Assembly: GCA_000004985.1 (NCBI GenBank)
Contig: GG738939.1
Strand: one strand, 5' to 3'
DNA: 51,393 nucleotides
Source of the DNA: Naegleria gruberi
Lineage: Eukaryota
A program made the position numbers and the translations under genes. Within the stretch, counting starts at the first letter, position 1. The number at the start of each line of letters is the position of its first letter. Below the pieces are notes generated by a model. It searched no databases, was not told the origin of the DNA, and saw nothing but the letters and a program-made list of their open reading frames with translations. Of this stretch, positions 6,401 to 49,950 are shown piece after piece.

Positions 6401-6499
6401 NNNNNNNNNNNNNNNNNNNNNNNNNNNNNNNNNNNNNNNNNNNNNNNNNNNNNNNNNNNNNNNNNNNNNNNNNNNNNNNTTCAATGAACAAATGTGGTA

Positions 6500-7075
6500 T
6501 CATGAATTTCTGCATATCCTCCTTGATGAGATTGAGGCTCCCTTCAATTGTTTGATCTCTTCTGTATTAATTTTTGTAAAGGTAGTGGAGGATAAACTTG
6601 TGCAATCTTGTGTAATTTGTAACTCGTCTCCAAGTGCTAGATCACAACTAGAATCATAGATCACATACATTGTTTTAAAATTTTCTGGTTTGGTAACAAT
6701 GGAATGTAATTGCACTTTACGACTGGCAAGGTACTTGTCAACTACCACAAATTGAGAGTCTTTCTTGAGTTGTTCTGGTAAACTGTTTTGAAGAGCTGAC
6801 TTGTTCTCAGTTGTTTGGGAATGATTAATATTCAAATCAGAGTCTTTCTTGAGTTTGTTTGTAAGAGATGACTCTGACTTGTTCTCTGCACGGAAAGGAT
6901 GTTTCCTTCCTTTACTTTTCTTTTTTAAAACTTGGAAACCTTTAGAATCATCATCTGATGTTATGAAATCTTCATCAGTAGAAGGAGGAGCAACATTTTC
7001 TTGCTTGTGAGAAGAAGTGGATTCTATTTCTTGATCGTTATCGCTTGTGAGTAGGTTGAAACTGTTGAAAGACAT
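6500..7075 (-). CDS. Hypothetical protein, 191 aa, Ser/Asp/Lys-rich and low-complexity, with no recognisable domain
   Basis: Genuine ATG at 7075..7073 (revcomp ATGTCTTTCAAC) and TGA stop at 6502..6500. Complete ORF in visible sequence. Divergent from the gene at 7244 with a 168-bp spacer. Confidence 0.5.
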   Translation of the reverse strand: MSFNSFNLLTSDNDQEIESTSSHKQENVAPPSTDEDFITSDDDSKGFQVLKKKSKGRKHPFRAENKSESSLTNKLKKDSDLNINHSQTTENKSALQNSLPEQLKKDSQFVVVDKYLASRKVQLHSIVTKPENFKTMYVIYDSSCDLALGDELQITQDCTSLSSTTFTKINTEEIKQLKGASISSRRICRNS

Positions 7076-30854: not shown

Positions 30855-33019
30855 GGTATCTACGTTGGCAGCAATGAATCCGAAATCCTTTCTATTGGTG
30901 AATTTAGATATCGAAGGAGCTTATGACTCTGTTGAAGTTTCTGTTATTGAATTAGCTCTAAAACATTGCAAATTTCCAATTAATTTAATTCAATTTATTA
31001 TTAATTCTTACAAAGAACACACTCTACAACTTGAAATCAATAACCACTTGTCCGAACCAATTACAAAATCCAGGGGAATCCCACAAGGTTGTCCATTATC
31101 ACCCCTGATTTATGATTGTATAACACAATTAATTATTGACAAAAGTATAGATGTTTGGAAATTACCAAAAGATCCTTGTAATCTTAATGCAAACGAAATA
31201 GGTATCCTTGGTTTTGCAGATGATATGTATCTTATTGCTGACACATCTGATATTAATACCGATTATAACGAAAGATTAAATGAATTAGATAGATGGGTAA
31301 CTGATCTTGCGTTAAAAATCAACCCTTCTAAATCAGTTGCAACAATACTGACTGAAAATGAATTGGATATAACCCCAAAAATTAATAATGTGAAAATTCC
31401 AATTCAGAAAAATATCAGAGTATTAGGTCATTATCCTTGGGAAGACCAACTTGTACAAGAAGATATTGAAAAAAGAATTTCCCTGTTTGAACTTTCCCTA
31501 AAATATCTTCCAATTAGATCATTAGAAATAAGAAATTTTAGAAAAGTAATCCAAGCTAAAGTATTGAGCCTATTCACACATATTACTCGTAGTAATGTTA
31601 TTTCAACCAAATATTGTGATAGAATTAATATTGCAATTAGACAAGCAATAAGAAGAAGAGGTAACTTACATTCAGCTACATCTACAGATTGGTTTCACTT
31701 ACCACTAGATCAAGGAGGTCTTAATATCCCTAAAATTGATGAATTTATTGAAAGACTACACATTAAGACCATTATGCAATTGAGAAATCAAAGAAATACC
31801 CTTGTCAGAAAAGCGTTTAACTGGGGAATTGATAATATTTCAAATTATAATTCAATATTCCATCAAATGAATCAAAGTTTGAAGCATTTTGACTTAACAT
31901 TTAATCAAAACTCAATAGAACCTTTAAGACCTTCAATTCTACAAGGTCAAAACTTTGAAATTTATACTGATGGATCGAAAATGGATGAAAATTCGACAGG
32001 ATTTGGTATCTACTTTCATAAAGGGGTAATTGAAGGAAATGAACAATTAAGCTTTAATATCGATGGAAGATACTCTCATAATGTAGCTGAATTGACTGCA
32101 ATTCTTATGGCTTCTAAATTATTACCTAATAATTCAAAAGCTACTATATTTACAGACAGCAAAATATCTATTGATATTCTAAATCCAAGATATGATGGGA
32201 AATTTTCCATTTTTAAAGATGAATTTTATAGAACAATATTTGATAAGAATTTGAAAATTAAATTGGAAAAGGTAAAAGGACATGTTGATCCTAATAATAT
32301 AATCGTTGATGAATTAGCCAAAAAGGGTTCGAAACAATATAATATTTCCATTGATATTAGAAAGCTTCTTCCTAATGCCATGTATTTAGAAAATAATGGA
32401 ACCATTATATTTGATCTACAGAATTATTTGAAAGGTATTCAAAGAGATAGGAGAGCTACCATTGCTAGAGATAAATCCAACCTAATTATAACCAAGGGAT
32501 GGTCCTCAGCAAATATCAAATACCTAAATTCTCATTTAGAACCTTACACCAAATTCTGTATCTGGAGAAACATGACAAATAATCATATTAGACAATACAA
32601 ACCCGTAAGCTGCTCGCACTGTGGAAGAATAGTTGAATTAGAACATTATATTTATTACTGTCCTGAAATGAGTGAAAAGCGAAACTACTTCTTGAATAAG
32701 TTCTATGAAATAACAAAATATAGAGCAATATTACATGATAGAAATGAATTTAGGTTTTCAAACAGATGGAAAGGATTCTTGATTAATCATAGAGGATTAT
32801 TAGATGAGAACAATCAAGATGAAATTAGAAGAAAATATCCATCAATTATTAGAAACTGGGTGGAAATTCAATCTTTACTGTCGTTACTTGTTGGTAAAGC
32901 ACATAAGAGATATTATCGTGATTTTCTTAAAACAAGAAAGAAAAACAAGAAGAAAACCAAAGAATAATCTATTTCGATTTCTAAAAAGATCCAATGGGTC
33001 TTTAATAAAGTTCAAAATA
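30855..33019 (+). mobile_element. Non-LTR (LINE-like) retrotransposon, copy A, 3' portion only; the 5' part is masked
   Basis: ORF2 C-terminal part with RT motifs (LVNLDIEGAYDSV, FADDMYLIA), an RNase H domain (FEIYTDGSK...AELTAIL...FTDSK...GHVDPNNIIVDELAKKG) and a CCHC knuckle (CSHCGRIVELEHYIYYCPE). 30855-31290 is 100% identical to 39566-40001 of copy B. A-rich 3' terminus ...gttcaaaataa. Confidence 0.9.
30856..32967 (+). CDS. LINE ORF2 C-terminal fragment (reverse transcriptase, RNase H, CCHC zinc knuckle); TAA stop at 32965-32967
   Basis: Frame continuous from the mask edge to the TAA. YxDD-type FADD motif, RNase H D/E/D/H residues, C-x2-C-x9-H-x4-C. The M at 30865 in the ORF track is a TTG codon (Leu), not a start. 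Confidence 0.9.
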   Translation, partial: VSTLAAMNPKSFLLVNLDIEGAYDSVEVSVIELALKHCKFPINLIQFIINSYKEHTLQLEINNHLSEPITKSRGIPQGCPLSPLIYDCITQLIIDKSIDVWKLPKDPCNLNANEIGILGFADDMYLIADTSDINTDYNERLNELDRWVTDLALKINPSKSVATILTENELDITPKINNVKIPIQKNIRVLGHYPWEDQLVQEDIEKRISLFELSLKYLPIRSLEIRNFRKVIQAKVLSLFTHITRSNVISTKYCDRINIAIRQAIRRRGNLHSATSTDWFHLPLDQGGLNIPKIDEFIERLHIKTIMQLRNQRNTLVRKAFNWGIDNISNYNSIFHQMNQSLKHFDLTFNQNSIEPLRPSILQGQNFEIYTDGSKMDENSTGFGIYFHKGVIEGNEQLSFNIDGRYSHNVAELTAILMASKLLPNNSKATIFTDSKISIDILNPRYDGKFSIFKDEFYRTIFDKNLKIKLEKVKGHVDPNNIIVDELAKKGSKQYNISIDIRKLLPNAMYLENNGTIIFDLQNYLKGIQRDRRATIARDKSNLIITKGWSSANIKYLNSHLEPYTKFCIWRNMTNNHIRQYKPVSCSHCGRIVELEHYIYYCPEMSEKRNYFLNKFYEITKYRAILHDRNEFRFSNRWKGFLINHRGLLDENNQDEIRRKYPSIIRNWVEIQSLLSLLVGKAHKRYYRDFLKTRKKNKKKTKE

Positions 33020-33036
33020 ATTTTTTTTTATTTGTG
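33020..33036 (+). repeat. 17-nt junction motif aTTTTTTTTTATTTGTG at the 3' boundary of LINE copy A, identical to the motif at the 5' boundary of copy B
   Basis: Exact 17/17 match to 36536..36552. Flanking sequence diverges immediately on both sides. The minus-strand reading is CACAAATAAAAAAAAAt. Confidence 0.8.
33027..33032 (-). promoter_or_regulatory. Candidate AATAAA polyadenylation signal for the minus-strand sterol desaturase gene, lying inside the LINE junction motif
   Basis: Plus-strand tttatt at 33027-33032 reads AATAAA on the minus strand, about 96 nt downstream of the TAA at 33130..33128. Confidence 0.35.
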
Positions 33037-33127
33037 GAATTGAACTCCGAAATAGTACAACTCCGGATTGAACTATAAAGTTCCTTATTTGTCAAGTGTT
33101 TAGTATTGAACACTGATGCTTACAAGG

Positions 33128-33968
33128 TTATTCTTGATGAATTTTATTCGATTCTGCTAGTTTCTTCTTTTGTTGTTTGAGTTTCCACTCAAAGAATCCA
33201 CCACAAGTTCCACACCAAATATCCCACCACATGAAATTCGATGAAAATACTCCACTACATCTACGATGATGAAAATCATGAAAATCAGCACCTCCAATTA
33301 AGTTTGGCGCCAAATTATTCGGAGAAAATGGGAAATCAAAGCCCGAATGAGTTTCACAAGCTGCCAATTGTCTAAGGTTGACAAAGATTAAGAGAGTAAG
33401 GAAGTGTGGACGGAGGAGAAGAGGTCCTAGAAAGGTGGCGAATCCAAGTATTAAAATTTCTAAGGGATGGGCGAAACTAGTGGAAAGTATAGTTGGAGAT
33501 TCGAATTCGTGATGGATTTTGTGGATGACGTGGTAGGCCCATGGTGTGTGAAGCCACCTATGGAACCAGTAGTGAGCTGTGTCTTCCATGAAGAAACAGA
33601 AAGCTAATTGAAGGAGAAGAACTTTCCAATTTGGGATATTCGAAACTTCGAGACTAAAGTAGTCAATTTGAGTAAGAAAGTGAAAAGCAACTGCATACAT
33701 TGGAAGAATCACCAAAAAGTAAATAAATAACAAATAGAATGTTGCCTTAACAATTTTCATTCCACTATTTTTCCTTTTCTGAAATAGTTTCGTCAAGGTT
33801 TCCAATAAAAATTTATATACTTACTGGTTGAATCTTATATTTCCTCAGAAAATCAAAGTCGCACCACTCTACCAACCACATCAATCCACTAGGAATGAAA
33901 TAATTCAAAAACAAAATGACAAATGGCAAGACAATTGTCACCATCGTGAGTGAATAATTCTCCAACAT
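33128..33968 (-). CDS. Fatty acid hydroxylase / sterol desaturase superfamily protein (ERG25/MSMO1-like C-4 methylsterol oxidase type). Two exons, join(33968..33825, 33778..33128), 264 aa
   Basis: Three histidine boxes (HRWLH, HKIHH, HDFHH) and N-terminal TM helices. Exon 1 starts at ATG 33968 and has 48 codons. A 46-nt intron (33824..33779, GTAAGT...TTTCAG) is phase 0/0 and removes an in-frame TAA. Exon 2 runs to TAA 33130..33128. The M at 33805 in the ORF track is a TTG codon inside the intron. Confidence 0.75.
33779..33824 (-). other. Spliceosomal intron, 46 nt, GTAAGT...TTTCAG
   Basis: The donor GT at 33824/33823 directly follows codon 48 (CCA). The acceptor AG at 33780/33779 precedes in-frame AAA AGG. 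Without splicing the frame hits TAA after 3 codons. Confidence 0.6.
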
Positions 33969-35940
33969 GAAATCCACAATTTCACCATTCCACCATCAAA
34001 GAATATTCAATTCTGATAAGTTATCATCTGGATAATCTGTTGATATATTAGATTCATNNNNNNNNNNNNNNNNNNNNNNNNNNNNNNNNNNNNNNNNNNN
34101 NNNNNNNNNNNNNNNNNNNNNNNNNNNNNNNNNNNNNNNNNNNNNNNNNNNNNNNNNNNNNNNNNNNNNNNNNNNNNNNNNNNNNNNNNNNNNNNNNNNN
34201 NNNNNNNNNNNNNNNNNNNNNNNNNNNNNNNNNNNNNNNNNNNNNNNNNNNNNNNNNNNNNNNNNNNNNNNNNNNNNNNNNNNNNNNNNNNNNNNNNNNN
34301 NNNNNNNNNNNNNNNNNNNNNNNNNNNNNNNNNNNNNNNNNNNNNNNNNNNNNNNNNNNNNNNNNNNNNNNNNNNNNNNNNNNNNNNNNNNNNNNNNNNN
34401 NNNNNNNNNNNNNNNNNNNNNNNNNNNNNNNNNNNNNNNNNNNNNNNNNNNNNNNNNNNNNNNNNNNNNNNNNNNNNNNNNNNNNNNNNNNNNNNNNNNN
34501 NNNNNNNNNNNNNNNNNNNNNNNNNNNNNNNNNNNNNNNNNNNNNNNNNNNNNNNNNNNNNNNNNNNNNNNNNNNNNNNNNNNNNNNNNNNNNNNNNNNN
34601 NNNNNNNNNNNNNNNNNNNNNNNNNNNNNNNNNNNNNNNNNNNNNNNNNNNNNNNNNNNNNNNNNNNNNNNNNNNNNNNNNNNNNNNNNNNNNNNNNNNN
34701 NNNNNNNNNNNNNNNNNNNNNNNNNNNNNNNNNNNNNNNNNNNNNNNNNNNNNNNNNNNNNNNNNNNNNNNNNNNNNNNNNNNNNNNNNNNNNNNNNNNN
34801 NNNNNNNNNNNNNNNNNNNNNNNNNNNNNNNNNNNNNNNNNNNNNNNNNNNNNNNNNNNNNNNNNNNNNNNNNNNNNNNNNNNNNNNNNNNNNNNNNNNN
34901 NNNNNNNNNNNNNNNNNNNNNNNNNNNNNNNNNNNNNNNNNNNNNNNNNNNNNNNNNNNNNNNNNNNNNNNNNNNNNNNNNNNNNNNNNNNNNNNNNNNN
35001 NNNNNNNNNNNNNNNNNNNNNNNNNNNNNNNNNNNNNNNNNNNNNNNNNNNNNNNNNNNNNNNNNNNNNNNNNNNNNNNNNNNNNNNNNNNNNNNNNNNN
35101 NNNNNNNNNNNNNNNNNNNNNNNNNNNNNNNNNNNNNNNNNNNNNNNNNNNNNNNNNNNNNNNNNNNNNNNNNNNNNNNNNNNNNNNNNNNNNNNNNNNN
35201 NNNNNNNNNNNNNNNNNNNNNNNNNNNNNNNNNNNNNNNNNNNNNNNNNNNNNNNNNNNNNNNNNNNNNNNNNNNNNNNNNNNNNNNNNNNNNNNNNNNN
35301 NNNNNNNNNNNNNNNNNNNNNNNNNNNNNNNNNNNNNNNNNNNNNNNNNNNNNNNNNNNNNNNNNNNNNNNNNNNNNNNNNNNNNNNNNNNNNNNNNNNN
35401 NNNNNNNNNNNNNNNNNNNNNNNNNNNNNNNNNNNNNNNNNNNNNNNNNNNNNNNNNNNNNNNNNNNNNNNNNNNNNNNNNNNNNNNNNNNNNNNNNNNN
35501 NNNNNNNNNNNNNNNNNNNNNNNNNNNNNNNNNNNNNNNNNNNNNNNNNNNNNNNNNNNNNNNNNNNNNNNNNNNNNNNNNNNNNNNNNNNNNNNNNNNN
35601 NNNNNNNNNNNNNNNNNNNNNNNNNNNNNNNNNNNNNNNNNNNNNNNNNNNNNNNNNNNNNNNNNNNNNNNNNNNNNNNNNNNNNNNNNNNNNNNNNNNN
35701 NNNNNNNNNNNNNNNNNNNNNNNNNNNNNNNNNNNNNNNNNNNNNNNNNNNNNNNNNNNNNNNNNNNNNNNNNNNNNNNNNNNNNNNNNNNNNNNNNNNN
35801 NNNNNNNNNNNNNNNNNNNNNNNNNNNNNNNNNNNNNNNNNNNNNNNNNNNNNNNNNNNNNNNNNNNNNNNNNNNNNNNNNNNNNNNNNNNNNNNNNNNN
35901 NNNNNNNNNNNNNNNNNNNNNNNNNNNNNNNNNNNNNNNN

Positions 35941-36537
35941 AACTATTCCAATAATGTTACTTATACTGCAATTCACAAAATTTAAATATTTTGTGCTAAT
36001 TCTGACTGACCCATTATCAATTATTAAGTTTGACATTTTCACACTTGGCATTCCTTCCATAATGAATAGTTTCGTATTTCTAATTATTAAATATTCAAGT
36101 TCCAAATTAATATTCTTTGAAAATTGAATAAATTCATCACACTCAATTACTGATAGAGAATCTGTTTCGAATGATTTCATTCTAAATGTTTGAAAACTAT
36201 TAAATATTTGATAATCCTGCAAATTATATGAACATCGCTTCATTTCTCCCATCACCATCACATCCAATATTCGAAACTCATCTATTTTCACATTTTCCAC
36301 AATAAAATTCACAATTTGCATAAAATCACCACATGGATCATCGGGTGAGAAACAGGCTTTGGAAGTTGTATTCGAAATTCCATCATCATTCAAGTAGAAA
36401 AACAATTCATTATCATCTATTAGATTGTGTGATGAAATTAAATTCGAATTTTCGGAAGAACACAAGCAAACACCAATCATCGATGATGATAGCATCAAAA
36501 AGGCGAGAAGCAGGGTTATATGTTGTGGTGATGACAT
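35941..36537 (-). CDS. N-terminal part of a secreted leucine-rich protein (signal peptide MSSPQHITLLLAFLMLSSSMIGVCLC); continues into the masked block
   Basis: ATG 36537..36535 in context aaaaaaaaATGTCATCA. Hydrophobic signal peptide. Downstream Leu/Ile/Asn-rich repeat-like segments (ELEYLIIRNTKLFIMEG..NLIIDNGSVRIS..LNFVNCSISNI). The frame is open to the mask edge. The track shows the same frame reaching a stop at 34054, but that stretch is masked. Confidence 0.55.
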
Positions 36538-36552
36538 TTTTTTTTATTTGTG
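36536..36552 (+). repeat. 17-nt junction motif aTTTTTTTTTATTTGTG immediately 5' of LINE copy B
   Basis: Identical to 33020..33036. The first T (36537) is the complement of the A of the minus-strand ATG of the secreted leucine-rich gene. Confidence 0.8.
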
Positions 36553-36565
36553 CGAAGTAAAAAAA

Positions 36566-37948
36566 ATGTCTAAACATCATCCTCCGTGGATTACAAAGAA
36601 CATAACAAAAGCAGGCCCCAGCTCTGCCAGAAATCTAAAGTCCACTAAAAGTCACACTAAGGAATTAATTTCCGTACCTAAAAATAATTTAAATTTTAAT
36701 TTTAAAATGTCTTATGCTGATGTTGTTAAACAAATTCCGAGATCGGAATCAAAATTGAAATCGGAATCAAAACAAATCGTGATTGCCAACCGAACTATTA
36801 ATATCAAGTCGGTTAATTTAAATTCAAGACAAAAAAAATTCAGTAGAAATATTAAGATGTCAGATAATAAGCAAATCGACTACGAAACTTGTATTTCAGT
36901 ATTTGTCCAACAACCAAATGAAGCATTTGAAGATTTAATTGTTAAGGAGGTTGGTCACTTATGTAATAGAATTTATGTTCCAGAATTGAAACCAAAACTT
37001 GTTCAATTAATTATAGATAGCAAAGAAAATTATCAAGAAGCAATAAGAATTCTCAATAATATGGTTACAAAAACTAATACGAAATTCCTTCCTTCCCCTA
37101 TGAACTTTACTCCAACTAATCATACCGTCAAATATCATTCAGAAAAATTAGATTTTATTAATCACCAAATTTCTAATATTATTGATGCAGTATGGCATAG
37201 TAAGATTAATATCTCACAAATGAATCTCAGTTTTGATAGAACTACTCAAATCTACAAGTTAAGAGTTGCTCTTATTAACTCAAATGGAAAAGATGAGCTA
37301 TTGAAAAATGGTTTTCAAGAATATAAGTCAATGGATCAAATTCTTAAAGAATGTCAATTTGAAGCCACCTGCAATTTCCCTACATCATTCCAAGAAAAGG
37401 ATATCATTGAGGCAGTTAAAGAAATTAGTAAATTGGCTGACGTTCAATTTCGTCGCAGTAACCTTACTATTACCAAGTTGAAAGCAACCTATCTCCATAA
37501 TAGAGAATATTATGCAGTTAATTACAAACTTCAAAACGAAGAGGAATTGAAAGCATTTATATCAAAGGCGATTAGATGTAAGGGATCTAAAGATAATTCC
37601 AAGAAAATCTTTAAAAGATTTAAATCTACTGCTGAATACTTGAAGAAGAAATTACAATCAAATAATACTGATAACCATGAAAATTTAACCAGTAGTTCTA
37701 TCATTATTGATATTAATAAGAGACTTACTAGAATGGAAGAGAAAATTGAAACTCAAGTTGCAAAGACTTCTAATCATGAACTAAAATTACAAAATTTTGA
37801 TGAAAGAATGAACAAGTTCTTAGAAAGTTTGGAACAATTAAGATTTTTAACAATGAATTTCAAGAATATTGGTAATGCAAAGGAAGGTATGAACGACGAA
37901 GGCTATGAGGATTACAATCCTCATGTAAATCACTCTCGTTATGATTGA
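36566..37948 (+). CDS. LINE ORF1 protein, about 460 aa, Lys/Asn-rich with a predicted coiled-coil C-terminal region
   Basis: First in-frame ATG at 36566 (aaaaaaATGTCTAAACATCAT), TGA at 37946-37948. No recognisable zinc knuckle. Heptad-like segment MEEKIETQVAKTSNHELKLQNFDERMNKFLESLEQL. Confidence 0.7.
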   Translation: MSKHHPPWITKNITKAGPSSARNLKSTKSHTKELISVPKNNLNFNFKMSYADVVKQIPRSESKLKSESKQIVIANRTINIKSVNLNSRQKKFSRNIKMSDNKQIDYETCISVFVQQPNEAFEDLIVKEVGHLCNRIYVPELKPKLVQLIIDSKENYQEAIRILNNMVTKTNTKFLPSPMNFTPTNHTVKYHSEKLDFINHQISNIIDAVWHSKINISQMNLSFDRTTQIYKLRVALINSNGKDELLKNGFQEYKSMDQILKECQFEATCNFPTSFQEKDIIEAVKEISKLADVQFRRSNLTITKLKATYLHNREYYAVNYKLQNEEELKAFISKAIRCKGSKDNSKKIFKRFKSTAEYLKKKLQSNNTDNHENLTSSSIIIDINKRLTRMEEKIETQVAKTSNHELKLQNFDERMNKFLESLEQLRFLTMNFKNIGNAKEGMNDEGYEDYNPHVNHSRYD

Positions 37949-40001
37949 TTTAAAATCTACTATCCGTGTGGGATGCTATAATGTAAATGGTCTAATTAGG
38001 ACAGGAAATTCTAAAGAAAAACTCATACAACCAATTAATGCAATGTGTAGATCTAATGGTATTCACATAATGTGTATAACAGAAACACATATCAATAATT
38101 ATGAATCTCAACAGAAATGTTATAATGAGTGTAATGGACATATTCTATTCAATTCCTTAATGAATACAAGAAAAGCTTGCAAGGGAACAGCAATTCTTCA
38201 TTTCTTAAATAACAAGAGAAAGAGATTTATTTCTAATCATAATATCATCAATGGTAAATTACAATGGTTTCGTTTCAAATCTAGAAACAAGATATTTAAT
38301 ATCATTGCGGGCTATTTATCAGGGAAAAAGGAAGAAGAAGATGATGATCAATTAGCTATGTCTCATATTATTGAAATTATGACTAAATTTAATGATGAAT
38401 ATTTTATTATAGCTGGTGATTTGAATATTGATAGTAATAACCCTATTTCCAAAAGAGATAAAGAATGGATGAATCTTCTAAAACAACTCAATATGTATGA
38501 AGACAAACAGCTTAGTCAAATATCATATAGAAGAAAACAGAAAGACAAGATCATTGAAACACACCCAGACCATATATTTGTATCAAATAATTTGAAAATA
38601 ATTGGAGGGAAAAGTCTACCATCTATAACTCACAATGATCATATACCTTTTTATATAGACATTCAATATGATTGCGATCCGACTTGGAGGGCATCTATTT
38701 CAAGGAAACATATAGAAACGTTATGTAGTACAATTAATCAAGAAACCTATTTATCATTTGATGAACTAGAACGGAATATTAAGAATAATTTTTTAAAGTA
38801 TTCATATAGGAATGATAAGCTTAATGTTAAATTCCTTTCGTCTAGAAAGCGAAAAGATATTAGAAGAATAGAATCAAAAATCAGAGAAATAATGGACAAA
38901 AAAGATCCAAAACAAGAACAGGAATTAATTACACTCCAAACAGAACTGAAAACTGTTTATAGAGAGGCTGCAAAAGAAATAAGAACAAATCTATTGGATC
39001 AATTTAATAGCCATAATTCTTCAGCAATGTACAGATTTGATAGACACCTTAAAGAAAAGACAATTAATTGGAATGAAATCTCATTTGATGAATCGACAGT
39101 TGTCAACTTCTTTCAGGATAAATTTACATCAAAAGTTGAAGATATTAATTTCATTCCAAGTAGGTCAACAATTAAGTATGGACCAAAAAGAATCAAATTT
39201 AAATTGGAAACTATCAAAAAAGCCCTTTTAAGAATGAGTTCTAATACTCCAGGAACAGATAATATTCCATTGTCTATAATAAGAGGTTTAAAAGATGAAC
39301 ATCTTCAACTCATTTGTGACAAATTTAATCAGTGCTTGGATAATGGTAATATTCCTTTGGAATGGAAAAATGGTTGGGTAAAATTAATTCCTAAACGAGA
39401 CATTATTTCTCTCAAAGATATTCGTCCGATTACTATCCTTCCAATTATGTATAGATTAATGTTTAATATTATTGCTTTTAAATTAAGGAAATGGGCTTCA
39501 GAGAATATAAATATACGTCAACAAGCATTTATACCAAAGAGGAATACCCTTAATCATGCAATATTGGTATCTACGTTGGCAGCAATGAATCCGAAATCCT
39601 TTCTATTGGTGAATTTAGATATCGAAGGAGCTTATGACTCTGTTGAAGTTTCTGTTATTGAATTAGCTCTAAAACATTGCAAATTTCCAATTAATTTAAT
39701 TCAATTTATTATTAATTCTTACAAAGAACACACTCTACAACTTGAAATCAATAACCACTTGTCCGAACCAATTACAAAATCCAGGGGAATCCCACAAGGT
39801 TGTCCATTATCACCCCTGATTTATGATTGTATAACACAATTAATTATTGACAAAAGTATAGATGTTTGGAAATTACCAAAAGATCCTTGTAATCTTAATG
39901 CAAACGAAATAGGTATCCTTGGTTTTGCAGATGATATGTATCTTATTGCTGACACATCTGATATTAATACCGATTATAACGAAAGATTAAATGAATTAGA
40001 T
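37941..40001 (+). CDS. LINE ORF2, N-terminal part: apurinic/apyrimidinic-type endonuclease domain and beginning of reverse transcriptase (partial; continues into the mask)
   Basis: ATG at 37941 lies within ATGATTGA and overlaps the ORF1 stop, in the +2 frame. Endonuclease motifs as above. RT motifs FIPKRNTLNHAI..LVNLDIEGAYDSV. Predicted full ORF2 is about 1245 aa, ending at 41678 by homology with copy A. Confidence 0.9.
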
Positions 40002-43000
40002 NNNNNNNNNNNNNNNNNNNNNNNNNNNNNNNNNNNNNNNNNNNNNNNNNNNNNNNNNNNNNNNNNNNNNNNNNNNNNNNNNNNNNNNNNNNNNNNNNNN
40101 NNNNNNNNNNNNNNNNNNNNNNNNNNNNNNNNNNNNNNNNNNNNNNNNNNNNNNNNNNNNNNNNNNNNNNNNNNNNNNNNNNNNNNNNNNNNNNNNNNNN
40201 NNNNNNNNNNNNNNNNNNNNNNNNNNNNNNNNNNNNNNNNNNNNNNNNNNNNNNNNNNNNNNNNNNNNNNNNNNNNNNNNNNNNNNNNNNNNNNNNNNNN
40301 NNNNNNNNNNNNNNNNNNNNNNNNNNNNNNNNNNNNNNNNNNNNNNNNNNNNNNNNNNNNNNNNNNNNNNNNNNNNNNNNNNNNNNNNNNNNNNNNNNNN
40401 NNNNNNNNNNNNNNNNNNNNNNNNNNNNNNNNNNNNNNNNNNNNNNNNNNNNNNNNNNNNNNNNNNNNNNNNNNNNNNNNNNNNNNNNNNNNNNNNNNNN
40501 NNNNNNNNNNNNNNNNNNNNNNNNNNNNNNNNNNNNNNNNNNNNNNNNNNNNNNNNNNNNNNNNNNNNNNNNNNNNNNNNNNNNNNNNNNNNNNNNNNNN
40601 NNNNNNNNNNNNNNNNNNNNNNNNNNNNNNNNNNNNNNNNNNNNNNNNNNNNNNNNNNNNNNNNNNNNNNNNNNNNNNNNNNNNNNNNNNNNNNNNNNNN
40701 NNNNNNNNNNNNNNNNNNNNNNNNNNNNNNNNNNNNNNNNNNNNNNNNNNNNNNNNNNNNNNNNNNNNNNNNNNNNNNNNNNNNNNNNNNNNNNNNNNNN
40801 NNNNNNNNNNNNNNNNNNNNNNNNNNNNNNNNNNNNNNNNNNNNNNNNNNNNNNNNNNNNNNNNNNNNNNNNNNNNNNNNNNNNNNNNNNNNNNNNNNNN
40901 NNNNNNNNNNNNNNNNNNNNNNNNNNNNNNNNNNNNNNNNNNNNNNNNNNNNNNNNNNNNNNNNNNNNNNNNNNNNNNNNNNNNNNNNNNNNNNNNNNNN
41001 NNNNNNNNNNNNNNNNNNNNNNNNNNNNNNNNNNNNNNNNNNNNNNNNNNNNNNNNNNNNNNNNNNNNNNNNNNNNNNNNNNNNNNNNNNNNNNNNNNNN
41101 NNNNNNNNNNNNNNNNNNNNNNNNNNNNNNNNNNNNNNNNNNNNNNNNNNNNNNNNNNNNNNNNNNNNNNNNNNNNNNNNNNNNNNNNNNNNNNNNNNNN
41201 NNNNNNNNNNNNNNNNNNNNNNNNNNNNNNNNNNNNNNNNNNNNNNNNNNNNNNNNNNNNNNNNNNNNNNNNNNNNNNNNNNNNNNNNNNNNNNNNNNNN
41301 NNNNNNNNNNNNNNNNNNNNNNNNNNNNNNNNNNNNNNNNNNNNNNNNNNNNNNNNNNNNNNNNNNNNNNNNNNNNNNNNNNNNNNNNNNNNNNNNNNNN
41401 NNNNNNNNNNNNNNNNNNNNNNNNNNNNNNNNNNNNNNNNNNNNNNNNNNNNNNNNNNNNNNNNNNNNNNNNNNNNNNNNNNNNNNNNNNNNNNNNNNNN
41501 NNNNNNNNNNNNNNNNNNNNNNNNNNNNNNNNNNNNNNNNNNNNNNNNNNNNNNNNNNNNNNNNNNNNNNNNNNNNNNNNNNNNNNNNNNNNNNNNNNNN
41601 NNNNNNNNNNNNNNNNNNNNNNNNNNNNNNNNNNNNNNNNNNNNNNNNNNNNNNNNNNNNNNNNNNNNNNNNNNNNNNNNNNNNNNNNNNNNNNNNNNNN
41701 NNNNNNNNNNNNNNNNNNNNNNNNNNNNNNNNNNNNNNNNNNNNNNNNNNNNNNNNNNNNNNNNNNNNNNNNNNNNNNNNNNNNNNNNNNNNNNNNNNNN
41801 NNNNNNNNNNNNNNNNNNNNNNNNNNNNNNNNNNNNNNNNNNNNNNNNNNNNNNNNNNNNNNNNNNNNNNNNNNNNNNNNNNNNNNNNNNNNNNNNNNNN
41901 NNNNNNNNNNNNNNNNNNNNNNNNNNNNNNNNNNNNNNNNNNNNNNNNNNNNNNNNNNNNNNNNNNNNNNNNNNNNNNNNNNNNNNNNNNNNNNNNNNNN
42001 NNNNNNNNNNNNNNNNNNNNNNNNNNNNNNNNNNNNNNNNNNNNNNNNNNNNNNNNNNNNNNNNNNNNNNNNNNNNNNNNNNNNNNNNNNNNNNNNNNNN
42101 NNNNNNNNNNNNNNNNNNNNNNNNNNNNNNNNNNNNNNNNNNNNNNNNNNNNNNNNNNNNNNNNNNNNNNNNNNNNNNNNNNNNNNNNNNNNNNNNNNNN
42201 NNNNNNNNNNNNNNNNNNNNNNNNNNNNNNNNNNNNNNNNNNNNNNNNNNNNNNNNNNNNNNNNNNNNNNNNNNNNNNNNNNNNNNNNNNNNNNNNNNNN
42301 NNNNNNNNNNNNNNNNNNNNNNNNNNNNNNNNNNNNNNNNNNNNNNNNNNNNNNNNNNNNNNNNNNNNNNNNNNNNNNNNNNNNNNNNNNNNNNNNNNNN
42401 NNNNNNNNNNNNNNNNNNNNNNNNNNNNNNNNNNNNNNNNNNNNNNNNNNNNNNNNNNNNNNNNNNNNNNNNNNNNNNNNNNNNNNNNNNNNNNNNNNNN
42501 NNNNNNNNNNNNNNNNNNNNNNNNNNNNNNNNNNNNNNNNNNNNNNNNNNNNNNNNNNNNNNNNNNNNNNNNNNNNNNNNNNNNNNNNNNNNNNNNNNNN
42601 NNNNNNNNNNNNNNNNNNNNNNNNNNNNNNNNNNNNNNNNNNNNNNNNNNNNNNNNNNNNNNNNNNNNNNNNNNNNNNNNNNNNNNNNNNNNNNNNNNNN
42701 NNNNNNNNNNNNNNNNNNNNNNNNNNNNNNNNNNNNNNNNNNNNNNNNNNNNNNNNNNNNNNNNNNNNNNNNNNNNNNNNNNNNNNNNNNNNNNNNNNNN
42801 NNNNNNNNNNNNNNNNNNNNNNNNNNNNNNNNNNNNNNNNNNNNNNNNNNNNNNNNNNNNNNNNNNNNNNNNNNNNNNNNNNNNNNNNNNNNNNNNNNNN
42901 NNNNNNNNNNNNNNNNNNNNNNNNNNNNNNNNNNNNNNNNNNNNNNNNNNNNNNNNNNNNNNNNNNNNNNNNNNNNNNNNNNNNNNNNNNNNNNNNNNNN

Positions 43001-43819
43001 NNNNNNNNNNNNNNNNNNNNNNNNNNNNNNNNNNNNNNNNNNNNNNNNNNNNNNNNNNNNNNNNNNNNNNNNNNNNNNNNNNNNNNNNNNNNNNNNNNNN
43101 NNNNNNNNNNNNNNNNNNNNNNNNNNNNNNNNNNNNNNNNNNNNNNNNNNNNNNNNNNNNNNNNNNNNNNNNNNNNNNNNNNNNNNNNNNNNNNNNNNNN
43201 NNNNNNNNNNNNNNNNNNNNNNNNNNNNNNNNNNNNNNNNNNNNNNNNNNNNNNNNNNNNNNNNNNNNNNNNNNNNNNNNNNNNNNNNNNNNNNNNNNNN
43301 NNNNNNNNNNNNNNNNNNNNNNNNNNNNNNNNNNNNNNNNNNNNNNNNNNNNNNNNNNNNNNNNNNNNNNNNNNNNNNNNNNNNNNNNNNNNNNNNNNNN
43401 NNNNNNNNNNNNNNNNNNNNNNNNNNNNNNNNNNNNNNNNNNNNNNNNNNNNNNNNNNNNNNNNNNNNNNNNNNNNNNNNNNNNNNNNNNNNNNNNNNNN
43501 NNNNNNNNNNNNNNNNNNNNNNNNNNNNNNNNNNNNNNNNNNNNNNNNNNNNNNNNNNNNNNNNNNNNNNNNNNNNNNNNNNNNNNNNNNNNNNNNNNNN
43601 NNNNNNNNNNNNNNNNNNNNNNNNNNNNNNNNNNNNNNNNNNNNNNNNNNNNNNNNNNNNNNNNNNNNNNNNNNNNNNNNNNNNNNNNNNNNNNNNNNNN
43701 NNNNNNNNNNNNNNNNNNNNNNNNNNNNNNNNNNNNNNNNNNNNNNNNNNNNNNNNNNNNNNNNNNNNNNNNNNNNNNNNNNNNNNNNNNNNNNNNNNNN
43801 NNNNNNNNNNNNTCATTAG

Positions 43820-44224
43820 TCAACTGCAAAATTAACTATTCTTAATATTAGTTGCAATCGAATTAATGATGAAGGAGCCAAATCACTTAGTCAATTGAAC
43901 CAATTAACAAACCTAAACATTAGACTAAACGAAATTGGAGATGAAGGCGCCAAATTTATTGGAAAAATGCAAAATCTAACTCTCCTCACCATTGATCACA
44001 ATCAAATTCAAACTCAGGGTGCAAAGTATCTCAGTAACTTGGTCAACTTGAAAACTTTATACATTCATGGAAATGAAAATATTGAAAGGGAAGGTTCCAA
44101 GGCAATTAGTGAAATGAAAGAGTTGAGAAGTGTAAAACTCGATCATATTCATATATTGTATGCAAATGTTAGATTTGGAATGAATGTTTCAGTTTCGTAT
44201 TACAACAAAAATAATTACATTTAA
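43820..44224 (+). CDS. Terminal exon of an RNI-type leucine-rich-repeat protein (24-aa repeats LxxLxLxxNxIGDEGAKxL). Upstream exons lie in the masked block
   Basis: Acceptor tcattAG|TCAACTGC at 43818/43819, with an in-frame TAG immediately upstream, so this is an exon start. Four or more tandem 24-residue LRRs. TAA at 44222-44224. AATAAA at 44228-44233. Confidence 0.65.
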   Translation, partial: STAKLTILNISCNRINDEGAKSLSQLNQLTNLNIRLNEIGDEGAKFIGKMQNLTLLTIDHNQIQTQGAKYLSNLVNLKTLYIHGNENIEREGSKAISEMKELRSVKLDHIHILYANVRFGMNVSVSYYNKNNYI

Positions 44225-44227
44225 TTG

Positions 44228-44233
44228 AATAAA
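44228..44233 (+). promoter_or_regulatory. AATAAA polyadenylation signal of the LRR gene
   Basis: gaATAAAc, 4 nt after the stop codon. Confidence 0.4.
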
Positions 44234-44335
44234 CAACAATTTCAATTTCTTACTCTGTTACAATTAAATATCAGTATGATATATATTTGAGTATAGGGGA
44301 AAAATTAATAGCATTGTAAAATATTAAATATATAT

Positions 44336-44797
44336 TTAGTCAACTTGTAACAATTTCAATAAATTCTCATAGTGCTCCATATCCCTTTCAATTCCATTAA
44401 TAATTTCCATCCACCACAATGAGGTTTCATCATATCCATACTCTTGCTCATGTTCTTCCCTCGATTTTTCACACTCTTTTCGATCCAATTCCAAATCTGA
44501 TAAAATCTTGAGAATTCCATCTTTCATTTCCTTCTTCATTTCTATCAAGTCAATAAATTGTTGTTGTGGTGAATTTGTATTTTCATCAAATTTCTTCTCC
44601 AAAATCTCCAGCATCATATTTGGAATTAAAAGACGATTGTAATATTCATTCCATAAATTTCTCCAAAAAATTCTGGAATTCATTACAATATTATGAGTTG
44701 ACCGATCGATTTGTAATATCGTTCCGAGGTGTTTTATGGAGAGAAAGTTGAAAATCTCTATGAGCACCTCTGGAGGCAAATCACTAAATGATGACAT
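44336..44797 (-). CDS. Small F-box protein, 153 aa
   Basis: ATG 44797..44795 (aaaaaaaaaATGTCATCA). N-terminal F-box LPPEVLIEIFNFLSIKHLGTIL. Acidic C-terminal half. Stop at 44338..44336. Single exon. Confidence 0.7.
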   Translation of the reverse strand: MSSFSDLPPEVLIEIFNFLSIKHLGTILQIDRSTHNIVMNSRIFWRNLWNEYYNRLLIPNMMLEILEKKFDENTNSPQQQFIDLIEMKKEMKDGILKILSDLELDRKECEKSREEHEQEYGYDETSLWWMEIINGIERDMEHYENLLKLLQVD

Positions 44798-44853
44798 TTT
44801 TTTTTTTGATTTAATTTAGATCAGGCAAAGTTCATCAGTGTTTGAATTTAATC

Positions 44854-44877
44854 TTTCAGTTTCGAATTACAACAAAA
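44854..44877 (+). pseudogene. Relic of the 3' end of a paralogous LRR gene: 24-nt segment matching 44187-44210 at 23/24, including the last codons and stop region
   Basis: tttcagtttcgAattacaacaaaa versus tttcagtttcgTattacaacaaaa. Encodes ..SVSNYNKI* versus ..SVSYYNKNNYI*. Lies in the spacer between the F-box start and the sphingomyelinase stop. Confidence 0.4.
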
Positions 44878-44927
44878 TTTAGGAAGAAACTGTATTTCAA
44901 AGAAACCTAGGTGTTATTTTAGTTTAT

Positions 44928-45919
44928 TTAGACACAATATGGATGTTTTCTAGCCATATTATAATTCAGCTCAGTTGTGATACCCAAATGATCACTCGGA
45001 GTTGGAGTTGAATCTCCAAATAATTGGAGTTTGAAGGAATTATTGGAATTCCATTCCAAAATTCTACTAAATTTATCAACCATGATATGATCCATTCCAG
45101 TATTTCTTTCTGGATCATCAGAACAATCGCCAATTTCCCAATTTAATCCATTCACACAGAAAGTTGCCTTATTTGGATCAATTGACTGATATCCATATCC
45201 AGCAAGTGTTTCATAACCTTCTGGTTGCGTCAATGGTCCACTATTCAAATCACCAACCAAGATATTAGGTCTCTTCATGATAACCATCCTAGAAAACTCT
45301 GGTTGATACATTACTGGCAAGTCAATCCCAAAATTAAAAGGAAAGTGTGACTCCATAATAAATAATCCATTGATACACATCTCTAATAATCCTCTACTCA
45401 ATAAAAATGAAGGATAGGAAGTGTAATTGGCACGTGAGATTGGTGTCTTACTCAGAACCATCAATCCATTGGAGCCGTCATAGAGAAATTCCTGACCTGT
45501 GTGTCCAGGAGTGTAACAATTGGCTATATTCTTATTCTCAACGACAGATGTCAGGACACAGGATATACATTTAAAGTTTCCATAGGCAGCTCGACTCAAA
45601 AATTCAGCACAAGGTCCCAAAGTTGTCCACGAAAGTGTCAAATTTTTTTCACGGACACAATGAAGGAAAGGAAGAGCGAATCTATGGAATGAATCATCCG
45701 TACAAGATGCTTCATTCACAACTTCCTTGTGTCCATGGAAGGAGTATGGATATGAGGATTTCAGCTCTTCAGAAATTAGGTGGGAATGAGATTGGAGCCA
45801 AACTTCTTGGAGAAAGACTACATCGAGGTCTTTTGGTATGGTTTCTATGATTTTCTTGACATTGACTGGTGTGCCAGGTACTAGAGCAGTATTAAAGGAA
45901 GCAATCTTTAAGTTATGTA
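44928..45919 (-). CDS. Neutral sphingomyelinase-like Mg-dependent phosphodiesterase (SMPD2/ISC1-type EEP fold). The N-terminal few codons are masked and there is no C-terminal transmembrane anchor
   Basis: The frame is open from the mask edge: ..HNLKIASFNTALVPG..DLDVVFLQEVW..YPYSFHGH.. through MDHIMVDKF and PSDHLGITTEL to TAA at 44930..44928. It aligns by eye motif-for-motif with human SMPD2 (LRIFNLNCWGIP / LLEEVWSEQ / RIDYVLYK / PLSDHEALMATL). The M in the ORF track at 45719 is GTG (Val). Confidence 0.8.
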
Positions 45920-48900
45920 NNNNNNNNNNNNNNNNNNNNNNNNNNNNNNNNNNNNNNNNNNNNNNNNNNNNNNNNNNNNNNNNNNNNNNNNNNNNNNNNN
46001 NNNNNNNNNNNNNNNNNNNNNNNNNNNNNNNNNNNNNNNNNNNNNNNNNNNNNNNNNNNNNNNNNNNNNNNNNNNNNNNNNNNNNNNNNNNNNNNNNNNN
46101 NNNNNNNNNNNNNNNNNNNNNNNNNNNNNNNNNNNNNNNNNNNNNNNNNNNNNNNNNNNNNNNNNNNNNNNNNNNNNNNNNNNNNNNNNNNNNNNNNNNN
46201 NNNNNNNNNNNNNNNNNNNNNNNNNNNNNNNNNNNNNNNNNNNNNNNNNNNNNNNNNNNNNNNNNNNNNNNNNNNNNNNNNNNNNNNNNNNNNNNNNNNN
46301 NNNNNNNNNNNNNNNNNNNNNNNNNNNNNNNNNNNNNNNNNNNNNNNNNNNNNNNNNNNNNNNNNNNNNNNNNNNNNNNNNNNNNNNNNNNNNNNNNNNN
46401 NNNNNNNNNNNNNNNNNNNNNNNNNNNNNNNNNNNNNNNNNNNNNNNNNNNNNNNNNNNNNNNNNNNNNNNNNNNNNNNNNNNNNNNNNNNNNNNNNNNN
46501 NNNNNNNNNNNNNNNNNNNNNNNNNNNNNNNNNNNNNNNNNNNNNNNNNNNNNNNNNNNNNNNNNNNNNNNNNNNNNNNNNNNNNNNNNNNNNNNNNNNN
46601 NNNNNNNNNNNNNNNNNNNNNNNNNNNNNNNNNNNNNNNNNNNNNNNNNNNNNNNNNNNNNNNNNNNNNNNNNNNNNNNNNNNNNNNNNNNNNNNNNNNN
46701 NNNNNNNNNNNNNNNNNNNNNNNNNNNNNNNNNNNNNNNNNNNNNNNNNNNNNNNNNNNNNNNNNNNNNNNNNNNNNNNNNNNNNNNNNNNNNNNNNNNN
46801 NNNNNNNNNNNNNNNNNNNNNNNNNNNNNNNNNNNNNNNNNNNNNNNNNNNNNNNNNNNNNNNNNNNNNNNNNNNNNNNNNNNNNNNNNNNNNNNNNNNN
46901 NNNNNNNNNNNNNNNNNNNNNNNNNNNNNNNNNNNNNNNNNNNNNNNNNNNNNNNNNNNNNNNNNNNNNNNNNNNNNNNNNNNNNNNNNNNNNNNNNNNN
47001 NNNNNNNNNNNNNNNNNNNNNNNNNNNNNNNNNNNNNNNNNNNNNNNNNNNNNNNNNNNNNNNNNNNNNNNNNNNNNNNNNNNNNNNNNNNNNNNNNNNN
47101 NNNNNNNNNNNNNNNNNNNNNNNNNNNNNNNNNNNNNNNNNNNNNNNNNNNNNNNNNNNNNNNNNNNNNNNNNNNNNNNNNNNNNNNNNNNNNNNNNNNN
47201 NNNNNNNNNNNNNNNNNNNNNNNNNNNNNNNNNNNNNNNNNNNNNNNNNNNNNNNNNNNNNNNNNNNNNNNNNNNNNNNNNNNNNNNNNNNNNNNNNNNN
47301 NNNNNNNNNNNNNNNNNNNNNNNNNNNNNNNNNNNNNNNNNNNNNNNNNNNNNNNNNNNNNNNNNNNNNNNNNNNNNNNNNNNNNNNNNNNNNNNNNNNN
47401 NNNNNNNNNNNNNNNNNNNNNNNNNNNNNNNNNNNNNNNNNNNNNNNNNNNNNNNNNNNNNNNNNNNNNNNNNNNNNNNNNNNNNNNNNNNNNNNNNNNN
47501 NNNNNNNNNNNNNNNNNNNNNNNNNNNNNNNNNNNNNNNNNNNNNNNNNNNNNNNNNNNNNNNNNNNNNNNNNNNNNNNNNNNNNNNNNNNNNNNNNNNN
47601 NNNNNNNNNNNNNNNNNNNNNNNNNNNNNNNNNNNNNNNNNNNNNNNNNNNNNNNNNNNNNNNNNNNNNNNNNNNNNNNNNNNNNNNNNNNNNNNNNNNN
47701 NNNNNNNNNNNNNNNNNNNNNNNNNNNNNNNNNNNNNNNNNNNNNNNNNNNNNNNNNNNNNNNNNNNNNNNNNNNNNNNNNNNNNNNNNNNNNNNNNNNN
47801 NNNNNNNNNNNNNNNNNNNNNNNNNNNNNNNNNNNNNNNNNNNNNNNNNNNNNNNNNNNNNNNNNNNNNNNNNNNNNNNNNNNNNNNNNNNNNNNNNNNN
47901 NNNNNNNNNNNNNNNNNNNNNNNNNNNNNNNNNNNNNNNNNNNNNNNNNNNNNNNNNNNNNNNNNNNNNNNNNNNNNNNNNNNNNNNNNNNNNNNNNNNN
48001 NNNNNNNNNNNNNNNNNNNNNNNNNNNNNNNNNNNNNNNNNNNNNNNNNNNNNNNNNNNNNNNNNNNNNNNNNNNNNNNNNNNNNNNNNNNNNNNNNNNN
48101 NNNNNNNNNNNNNNNNNNNNNNNNNNNNNNNNNNNNNNNNNNNNNNNNNNNNNNNNNNNNNNNNNNNNNNNNNNNNNNNNNNNNNNNNNNNNNNNNNNNN
48201 NNNNNNNNNNNNNNNNNNNNNNNNNNNNNNNNNNNNNNNNNNNNNNNNNNNNNNNNNNNNNNNNNNNNNNNNNNNNNNNNNNNNNNNNNNNNNNNNNNNN
48301 NNNNNNNNNNNNNNNNNNNNNNNNNNNNNNNNNNNNNNNNNNNNNNNNNNNNNNNNNNNNNNNNNNNNNNNNNNNNNNNNNNNNNNNNNNNNNNNNNNNN
48401 NNNNNNNNNNNNNNNNNNNNNNNNNNNNNNNNNNNNNNNNNNNNNNNNNNNNNNNNNNNNNNNNNNNNNNNNNNNNNNNNNNNNNNNNNNNNNNNNNNNN
48501 NNNNNNNNNNNNNNNNNNNNNNNNNNNNNNNNNNNNNNNNNNNNNNNNNNNNNNNNNNNNNNNNNNNNNNNNNNNNNNNNNNNNNNNNNNNNNNNNNNNN
48601 NNNNNNNNNNNNNNNNNNNNNNNNNNNNNNNNNNNNNNNNNNNNNNNNNNNNNNNNNNNNNNNNNNNNNNNNNNNNNNNNNNNNNNNNNNNNNNNNNNNN
48701 NNNNNNNNNNNNNNNNNNNNNNNNNNNNNNNNNNNNNNNNNNNNNNNNNNNNNNNNNNNNNNNNNNNNNNNNNNNNNNNNNNNNNNNNNNNNNNNNNNNN
48801 NNNNNNNNNNNNNNNNNNNNNNNNNNNNNNNNNNNNNNNNNNNNNNNNNNNNNNNNNNNNNNNNNNNNNNNNNNNNNNNNNNNNNNNNNNNNNNNNNNNN

Positions 48901-49950
48901 NNNNNNNNNNNNNNNNNNNNNNNNNNNNNNNNNNNNNNNNNNNNNNNNNNNNNNNNNNNNNNNNNNNNNNNNNNNNNNNNNNNNNNNNNNNNNNNNNNNN
49001 NNNNNNNNNNNNNNNNNNNNNNNNNNNNNNNNNNNNNNNNNNNNNNNNNNNNNNNNNNNNNNNNNNNNNNNNNNNNNNNNNNNNNNNNNNNNNNNNNNNN
49101 NNNNNNNNNNNNNNNNNNNNNNNNNNNNNNNNNNNNNNNNNNNNNNNNNNNNNNNNNNNNNNNNNNNNNNNNNNNNNNNNNNNNNNNNNNNNNNNNNNNN
49201 NNNNNNNNNNNNNNNNNNNNNNNNNNNNNNNNNNNNNNNNNNNNNNNNNNNNNNNNNNNNNNNNNNNNNNNNNNNNNNNNNNNNNNNNNNNNNNNNNNNN
49301 NNNNNNNNNNNNNNNNNNNNNNNNNNNNNNNNNNNNNNNNNNNNNNNNNNNNNNNNNNNNNNNNNNNNNNNNNNNNNNNNNNNNNNNNNNNNNNNNNNNN
49401 NNNNNNNNNNNNNNNNNNNNNNNNNNNNNNNNNNNNNNNNNNNNNNNNNNNNNNNNNNNNNNNNNNNNNNNNNNNNNNNNNNNNNNNNNNNNNNNNNNNN
49501 NNNNNNNNNNNNNNNNNNNNNNNNNNNNNNNNNNNNNNNNNNNNNNNNNNNNNNNNNNNNNNNNNNNNNNNNNNNNNNNNNNNNNNNNNNNNNNNNNNNN
49601 NNNNNNNNNNNNNNNNNNNNNNNNNNNNNNNNNNNNNNNNNNNNNNNNNNNNNNNNNNNNNNNNNNNNNNNNNNNNNNNNNNNNNNNNNNNNNNNNNNNN
49701 NNNNNNNNNNNNNNNNNNNNNNNNNNNNNNNNNNNNNNNNNNNNNNNNNNNNNNNNNNNNNNNNNNNNNNNNNNNNNNNNNNNNNNNNNNNNNNNNNNNN
49801 NNNNNNNNNNNNNNNNNNNNNNNNNNNNNNNNNNNNNNNNNNNNNNNNNNNNNNNNNNNNNNNNNNNNNNNNNNNNNNNNNNNNNNNNNNNNNNNNNNNN
49901 NNNNNNNNNNNNNNNNNNNNNNNNNNNNNNNNNNNNNNNNNNNNNNNNNN

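Follow-up and report, generated by a model that had tools for sequence, protein, structure and literature searches.

The DNA analyzed here (the window) is a complete 51,393-nt scaffold of Naegleria gruberi NEG-M from the 2010 draft assembly. It carries two visible parts of a long interspersed nuclear element (LINE), and at one end of each part stands an exact copy of the same 17-nt sequence (the 17-mer, ATTTTTTTTTATTTGTG), at 33020-33036 and 36536-36552 on the plus strand. The 3' part of the LINE (30855-33019, plus strand, contig c3) ends in ...AATAAAGTTCAAAATA and runs into the first of these copies, beyond which lies the 3' flank (33037-33130) of a C-4 sterol methyl oxidase gene on the minus strand (33131-33944, with exons at ~33944-33825 and 33790-33131; XP_002668883.1, our P0073). 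The 5' part of the LINE (36553-40001, plus strand, contig c4) is preceded by the second copy, and this in turn by the 5' part of a signal-peptide-like gene on the minus strand (35941-36537), whose product begins MSSPQHITLLLAFLMLSSSMIGVC.... The first two bases of the 36536 copy are the "AT" of that gene's start codon (CAT at 36535-36537), and its A9 leader is the T9 of the 17-mer. The signal-peptide gene thus forms the left-hand side of an insertion site, and the sterol methyl oxidase flank the right-hand side. The insertion point is the short junction between the sterol methyl oxidase 3' flank and the A-run leader and ATG of the signal-peptide gene. We consider it very likely that a 5,178-nt LINE entered here in one target-primed event and that the 17-mers, left and right, are the resulting target-site duplications.

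A reading of the sequence alone had drawn attention to the pair, and its basic observation was borne out: the match is exact, and outside it the flanking sequences show no relation, with 17/60 and 12/60 identities. No third match to the 17-mer is found in the window, even with two mismatches allowed. The same reading had taken the LINE boundaries from the motif itself, that is, not independently of it, and had offered a target-site duplication as one explanation, to be checked by looking for an empty site. That check came out in its favor. The metagenome contig L002 (2,575 nt), which stems from a close relative and carries P0031, contains the locus as a single junction and no LINE. Its identity to the window is 98.4% in a leucine-rich repeat (LRR) gene (44299-43815) and 97.2% from the sterol methyl oxidase gene through the 3' flank of that gene (34054-33035). 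A stretch of 16 bases then fails to align, and beyond it the similarity resumes at 90.6% in the initial 53 nt of the signal-peptide gene (36544-36492). Read along the minus strand, L002 passes from the sterol methyl oxidase flank into the signal-peptide start as ...GGAGTTTATTTC-CATAGATTTTCGATTTTTAAAAAAAAT-G TCC ACA CCA..., the junction itself reading ...CATAGATTTTCGATTTTTAAAAAAAATG-TCC-ACA-CCA. When the LINE and one 17-mer are taken out of the window, what is left reads ...GGAGTTCAATTC-CACAAATAAAAAAAAAT-G TCA TCA CCA..., which is colinear with the L002 junction apart from a single indel of 10 nt. For each end of the 17-mer (CACAAAT... and ...AAAAAAAAT), L002 has a host counterpart. Because both ends are matched in a LINE-free contig, the 17-mer is host DNA that was single before the insertion and now stands on both sides of it, the 5' copy at 36536-36552 and the 3' copy at 33020-33036. 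The duplication measures 16-17 bp, as its first A can be assigned either to the last base of the element or to the duplication. The features expected of a target-site duplication are thus found together. The repeats match at 17/17 positions and abut the 5' and 3' ends of the element, though these ends lie on different contigs; one homologous LINE-free junction lies between the same two genes in L002; and the LINE encodes an endonuclease and a reverse transcriptase (RT), the machinery of target-primed reverse transcription. The flanking repeat also differs among insertions, with T7 or T6 followed by unrelated sequence in two elements of a sister family described below; in the family of the window element, one insertion event is seen.

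The 5,178-nt element was obtained by joining its two visible parts through a 436-nt overlap. The part on c4 holds the 5' untranslated region (UTR), open reading frame (ORF) 1, and the start of ORF2 with the APE endonuclease and the beginning of the RT. The part on c3 holds the end of the RT, the RNase H domain, a C-terminal Cys/His motif, and the 3' UTR. The 5' UTR is only 13 nt long (CGAAGTAAAAAAA), and ORF1 (36566-37948) encodes 460 amino acids with no Pfam match and no detectable homologue. ORF2 starts at 37941, overlapping ORF1, and runs uninterrupted for 1,245 amino acids to a stop at 32965-32967 in c3. It matches the Pfam families Exo_endo_phos (APE-type endonuclease), RVT_1, and RNase_H, and its RT is distantly similar to the structures of R2 and L1 ORF2p. 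The 3' UTR of 52 nt contains a small hairpin and AATAAA, with no poly(A) tail. [quoted passage not shown] The order of its domains (APE-RT-RNase H-Cys/His) is compatible with several LINE clades, and the closest ORF2 relative in the databases, from the sister family, is 47% identical, with none higher. Metagenome scans with the protein and with the exact 3'-end DNA returned no match, an exact look-up of the ORF1 protein found no record, and literature searches for heterolobosean LINEs yielded nothing relevant. Since the insertion is absent from a relative that is 97-98% identical and the ORFs are intact, the element, judged from few junctions, is young and possibly active in N. gruberi, a genome for which we found no description of a LINE family.

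The sequence-only reading had counted two LINE copies, A and B, and this was not established. N bases account for 38,578 of the 51,393 positions (75%), in runs at 1016-6479, 7466-30854, 34058-35940, 40002-43812, and 45920-49950. As the window is a whole draft scaffold, these runs are very probably assembly gaps rather than masking, and the six visible blocks are then contigs. Compared with L002, the minus strand of c3 shows two frameshifts in the last ~100 nt before the edge at 34057 (33945-34057); they resemble the low-quality read ends of a true contig edge, and we consequently took the N runs as gaps. "Copy A" is visible only as the 3' part (30855-33019) and "copy B" only as the 5' part (36553-40001). 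The sole sequence common to both is a perfect overlap of 436/436 nt, from the first base of the c3 block (30855-31290) to the last base of the c4 block (39566-40001, plus strand). In the deposited order, c4, with the signal-peptide gene and the LINE 5' part, lies between c3 and the contig with the LRR-gene segment (c5; 43815-44299, minus strand). In L002, the sterol methyl oxidase gene is ~1 kb from the LRR gene. This spacing shows that the c4-c5 gap should hold sequence like that of c3. With c3 moved behind c4 by means of the dovetail, its end falls at 42768 and the distance to c5 is 1,044 nt, as compared with ~995 nt between the same anchors in L002.

There are two ways to account for this arrangement. 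We would give about an even chance to A and B being the same physical element, with c3 misplaced and belonging in the c4-c5 gap. A smaller but substantial share goes to a recent tandem duplication of an 8.7-kb unit (the LINE and its flank), in which two copies of c3 were collapsed by the assembler. A second copy of the inter-LINE segment was sought after copy B, and the visible block at 43813-45919 is not such a copy; the synteny with L002 later superseded this search. Under either option, a single insertion event gave rise to both 17-mers, and no site-specific recognition is needed to explain why they are identical. The sequence-specific 17-nt insertion site that had been suggested is therefore both unsupported and unneeded, as one insertion makes both copies identical. 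The puzzle of two copies with the same motif arises from the gaps of a draft scaffold or, at most, from a duplication at this locus. The scaffold probably contains an assembly error in the public record, either two mis-ordered contigs or a collapsed 8.7-kb duplication.

Several points weigh against a single insertion or against its simplest form, one misplaced contig. The L002 junction has diverged from that of the window (27 nt as compared with 17 nt, and the downstream gene is 90.6% identical over its initial 53 nt), so L002 is a homologous empty site from a relative rather than an identical allele. In the deposited scaffold, c3 lies left of c4 across a gap of a specific length, 1,883 nt. 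This hints at real mate-pair links, which would favor a tandem duplication over mis-ordering; the very sparse coverage of the scaffold makes mis-ordering easy. The c4-c5 distance is off by ~50 nt. Furthermore, N runs cover both A's 5' junction and B's 3' junction, and no contig shows both flanks. Finally, the junction anatomy and the empty site are seen directly, and it is from that anatomy that the nick positions and priming steps given below are deduced.

We compared the insertion with the sister family (47% ORF2 identity), of which four elements are present on the metagenome contigs L004, L005 (two elements), and L006. L004 holds a full-length element, L005 a 5'-truncated copy and an internally deleted element of ~640 nt, and L006 a deleted copy. 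All four sister 3' ends read ...AATAA(A) and continue into a T-run (T7, T6, T6, and T5), followed by unrelated flank, and the window element likewise ends in ...CAAAATA(A) followed by T9. At the 5' junctions, the window has T9 and ATTTGTG before CGAAGTAAAAAAAATG, L004 has T7 and CTGGCT before CGTCTTTCAAAAAAATG, and the L005 mini element has T6 and A before CGTCTTTCAAAAAAATA. Each of these elements thus has T-runs of one length at its two ends (9/9 in the window, 7/7 in L004, and 6/6 in the L005 mini element), and this length differs between elements, which is how a duplication behaves and not how a fixed terminal repeat does. Homology between independent sister copies stops inside the T-run (for L005 and L004, at L004 position 5652), and past the run the flanks are unrelated across five 3' junctions and three 5' junctions. 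In the host sequence examined, T-runs of at least six occur at 0.0008 per strand-nucleotide, so that one would be expected within 10 nt of a junction at ~0.008 per junction by chance. Given how rare such runs are in host DNA, their presence at 3/3 visible 5' ends is far beyond chance. That the homopolymer tract was there before the insertion is seen at one empty site (T8 in L002), and the junctions are few. The sequence-only reading had proposed that the endonuclease cuts next to the T-run. A looser form of this holds, in that the 3' end abuts a T-run in the window element and in four sister elements, with an equal run at the 5' end where that end is visible. In this small sample, the LINE lineage appears to prefer T-runs on the sense strand of the element.

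The sister copies offer some further observations. The ~640-nt element on L005 (~286-919) combines a LINE 5' end (CGTCTTTCAAAAAAAT...) with a diverged LINE 3' UTR; it has no ORFs, is bordered by T6 on both sides, and would appear from this makeup to be an internally deleted or non-autonomous derivative. The 5'-truncated copy on the same contig begins 24 nt after the T6 run that flanks the mini element and may, tentatively, have entered the same run. No source could be traced for the 24 nt at its 5' junction, and the T-runs there would be equal only if these 24 nt are filler. A 12-nt match between the ends of contig L004 (AATGAAATTGAA at 41 and 5745) was considered as a duplication and rejected, since the homology between copies ends at L004 5652, inside the T-run. 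All elements have a hairpin in the 3' UTR, ~20-30 nt before the 3' end (~32985-33003 in the window, ~5605-5628 in L004, and ~865-885 in L005). Its covariation is weak, with two pairs changed on both sides, and its fold z-scores range from -0.25 to -1.9; it may mark the site of RT entry.

From the junction anatomy, the insertion could have proceeded as follows. The APE endonuclease would nick the minus strand where the A9 run ends on its 3' side (5'-CACAAATAAAAAAAAA(T)^GTC-3'), and the freed 3'-OH of this strand would prime reverse transcription of the LINE RNA. The plus strand would then be cut 16-17 nt further on, after ATTTGTG, and fill-in would duplicate the staggered 16-17 bp on both sides. 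Across the elements, the plus-strand cut would fall 0 to 7 nt past the T-run, giving duplications of ~6-17 bp. Pairing between an A-run primer and an RNA with the end ...AAUAA is impossible, so either priming would need no complementarity or the template would be a read-through transcript. Such a transcript would carry the U-run of the donor copy's own flanking duplication. Termination by RNA polymerase III was considered as another source of a U-tail and is unlikely, as there are four internal runs of at least five T on the LINE sense strand.

It is conceivable, and we put it forward tentatively, that this heterolobosean LINE lineage homes to sense-strand oligo(dT), with priming by an oligo(A) 3' end and possibly by way of a read-through U-run, and that its elements tend to land head-to-head just upstream of ATGs. 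Landing head-to-head a few bases upstream of start codons would follow from the A-run that Naegleria genes often carry before the ATG, and the window element lies in this way. In the window, runs of 8-11 A stand directly before the minus-strand ATGs at 36537 and 44797 and before the ORF1 ATG at 36566. Two of these genes begin ATGTCATCA, which produces an exact 17-nt repeat between 36529-36545 and 44789-44805. An A-run before the ATG may be a common start context in the Naegleria genome and may make gene leaders frequent targets for a LINE that seeks T/A-runs. The suggestion that the 17-mer supplies the A-rich start context of the secreted-protein gene is supported by L002, where A8 stands before the same ATG. 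A second suggestion, that it gives the sterol desaturase gene a poly(A) signal, fared poorly, as the AATAAA is not conserved in L002.

Other explanations of the 17-mer pair have to be weighed against a single insertion. The one that survives best, although we consider it improbable, is that a site-specific or strongly site-biased LINE inserted independently into two paralogous junctions and made the same 17-bp duplication each time. The lineage does show a T-run preference, and the border of the run seems to be a fixed position for its first nick; paralogues of the fatty-acid hydroxylase gene exist in the relative's metagenome (L003, 64% amino acid identity); and the deposited scaffold has the two LINE parts 8,711 nt apart. 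However, this explanation requires a prior duplication of the host locus and then two insertions with identical second-strand cuts, which is unparsimonious, particularly as the length of the duplication varies from ~6 to 17 bp in the sister family. Nor does the sequence contain two distinct copies to explain, just the perfect 436-nt dovetail of two contig ends, and L002 has a single junction beside the LRR gene. A long recognition sequence is also missing, as the sister flanks share nothing past the T-run.

Less probable still is that AT-rich sequence of low complexity matched by chance or that the pair marks a recombination hotspot. Chance had been called very unlikely by the sequence-only reading, and this was too strong. 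When the visible 11.8 kb was simulated with a first-order Markov model, ~5% of the simulations contained some exact 17-nt direct repeat, and the real visible sequence holds three such pairs (33020/36536, 6755/6839, and 36529/44789), with T-runs next to ATG codons recurring. The second of these pairs, AGAGTCTTTCTTGAGTT at 6755-6771 and 6839-6855, is inside a minus-strand ORF (7075-6500) and is probably an internal coding repeat. The balance still favors a cause other than chance for the 17-mer, which lies exactly at both ends of the element and matches for seven bases past the T-run, in a sequence where only ~5% of simulations would give any repeat of this length. The empty-site comparison accounts for the pair fully, and the hotspot that had been proposed has no support and is rejected, there being no sign of recombination beyond the possible duplication of the whole unit. 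The last explanation, a terminal direct repeat that belongs to the element in the manner of an LTR, is the least credible of all and is rejected, for although a T-run borders both ends of every element examined and lies 20 nt from the ORF1 ATG in both the window element and L004, the 17-mer is present once in LINE-free L002 and includes two bases of a host start codon, the T-run and the bases that follow it vary between elements while matching within each, and independent sister copies lose homology inside the run.

The host genes and the scaffold around the insertion deserve brief comment. The sterol methyl oxidase belongs to the fatty-acid hydroxylase family, and a database cluster at 99% identity holds both XP_002668883.1 and P0031. 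The deposited model of 256 amino acids starts at an internal methionine and is truncated at the N-terminus, the homologue of Naegleria lovaniensis having 328 amino acids. The paralogue on L003 (ERZ929261 k127_517326) comes from the same metagenome as L002, and the family is multi-copy in this amoeba lineage. Exact-protein look-ups of the sterol methyl oxidase (as 210 amino acids, as 190 amino acids, and as the annotated P0073) and of an F-box-like ORF found no record and gave no gap-free copy of the locus. A nested direct repeat noted earlier downstream of copy A is indeed present (GAATTGAACTCCG...AACTCCGGATTGAACT, 33037-33085, plus strand); it belongs to the host 3' flank, most of it is also kept in L002, where there is no LINE, and it has no relation to the element. 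On the minus strand of the same flank (33037-33076), GTTCAATTC and GTTCAATCC fit the tRNA B-box pattern GTTCRANNC, and one of the two is not kept in L002. Scans of the window for tRNA genes and Rfam families gave no match, and the B-box-like motifs therefore do not point to targeting of a tRNA gene; they are probably coincidental. The scaffold starts with a (CCCAAA)n tandem array, from position 1 to ~530. TTTGGG has been published as the candidate telomere repeat for N. gruberi (PMC3622300), and because the array matches it, the scaffold begins at a chromosome end. The LINE sits ~30-40 kb into the subtelomere.

In comparison with known systems, the 17-mer duplication itself is standard LINE biology. 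LINEs of the APE type, for which L1 is the paradigm, insert by target-primed reverse transcription with staggered nicks that leave duplications of 7-20 bp. The L1 target consensus is 5'-TTTT/AA, and the poly(A) tail primes on the T-rich nick. Like insertions of the L1 type, that of the window combines an APE endonuclease and RT with an exact short repeat that is single-copy at the empty site; the length of the duplication varies, and the sister family has 5'-truncated and internally deleted copies. Unlike L1, the window LINE has an RNase H domain and a 13-nt 5' UTR, and it lacks a poly(A) tail, ending in ...AATAA(A) against a T-run, which gives the priming strand an A-run at its end. Its ORF2 is only distantly similar to L1-type proteins, and neither the 3' poly(A) tail nor the duplication with an A-rich start on the sense strand that would mark an L1-type insertion is found. 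The common extended flanks of site-specific LINEs (of the R1, R2, or Tx1 type) are likewise absent across the sister junctions, and the family of the window element offers its one insertion event. In some LINEs, including R1Bm and the microsatellite-targeting members of the Tx1/R1 group, read-through 3' sequence anneals to the target. A possible likeness to these lies in the T-run that follows every copy, as read-through past AATAAA would carry a U-run that pairs with the A-run primer and would thereby perpetuate T-run targeting. Unlike their targets, that of the present lineage is a homopolymer found genome-wide rather than a defined repeat or gene, and the flanks past the run are unrelated.

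The closest behavioral analogue that we verified is Zorro3, an L1-clade LINE of Candida albicans that integrates in homopolymer tracts of 9-12 bp, as is known from empty sites (Goodwin et al. 2007, PMC1965478). Zorro3 has a homopolymer tract at both ends and only 5 bp between the tract and the ORF1 ATG, and it is thought to insert near RNA polymerase II promoters in a compact, AT-rich genome (PMC1965478). The homopolymer at both ends and the very short 5' UTR are shared with the window LINE. Zorro3 carries its poly-A tracts on the sense strand; its poly-A tail pairs with a poly-T flap, and the tracts on either side become longer (PMC1965478). In contrast, the tract of the window LINE is poly-T on the sense strand and equal on both sides, and the duplication extends past it (ATTTGTG). 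The signal for T-run targeting, with a polarity opposite to that of Zorro3, L1, and the known poly-A-targeting LINEs, is small but consistent over few junctions. If confirmed, this polarity would add a variant to the ways in which LINE endonucleases and primers choose their sites in compact genomes.

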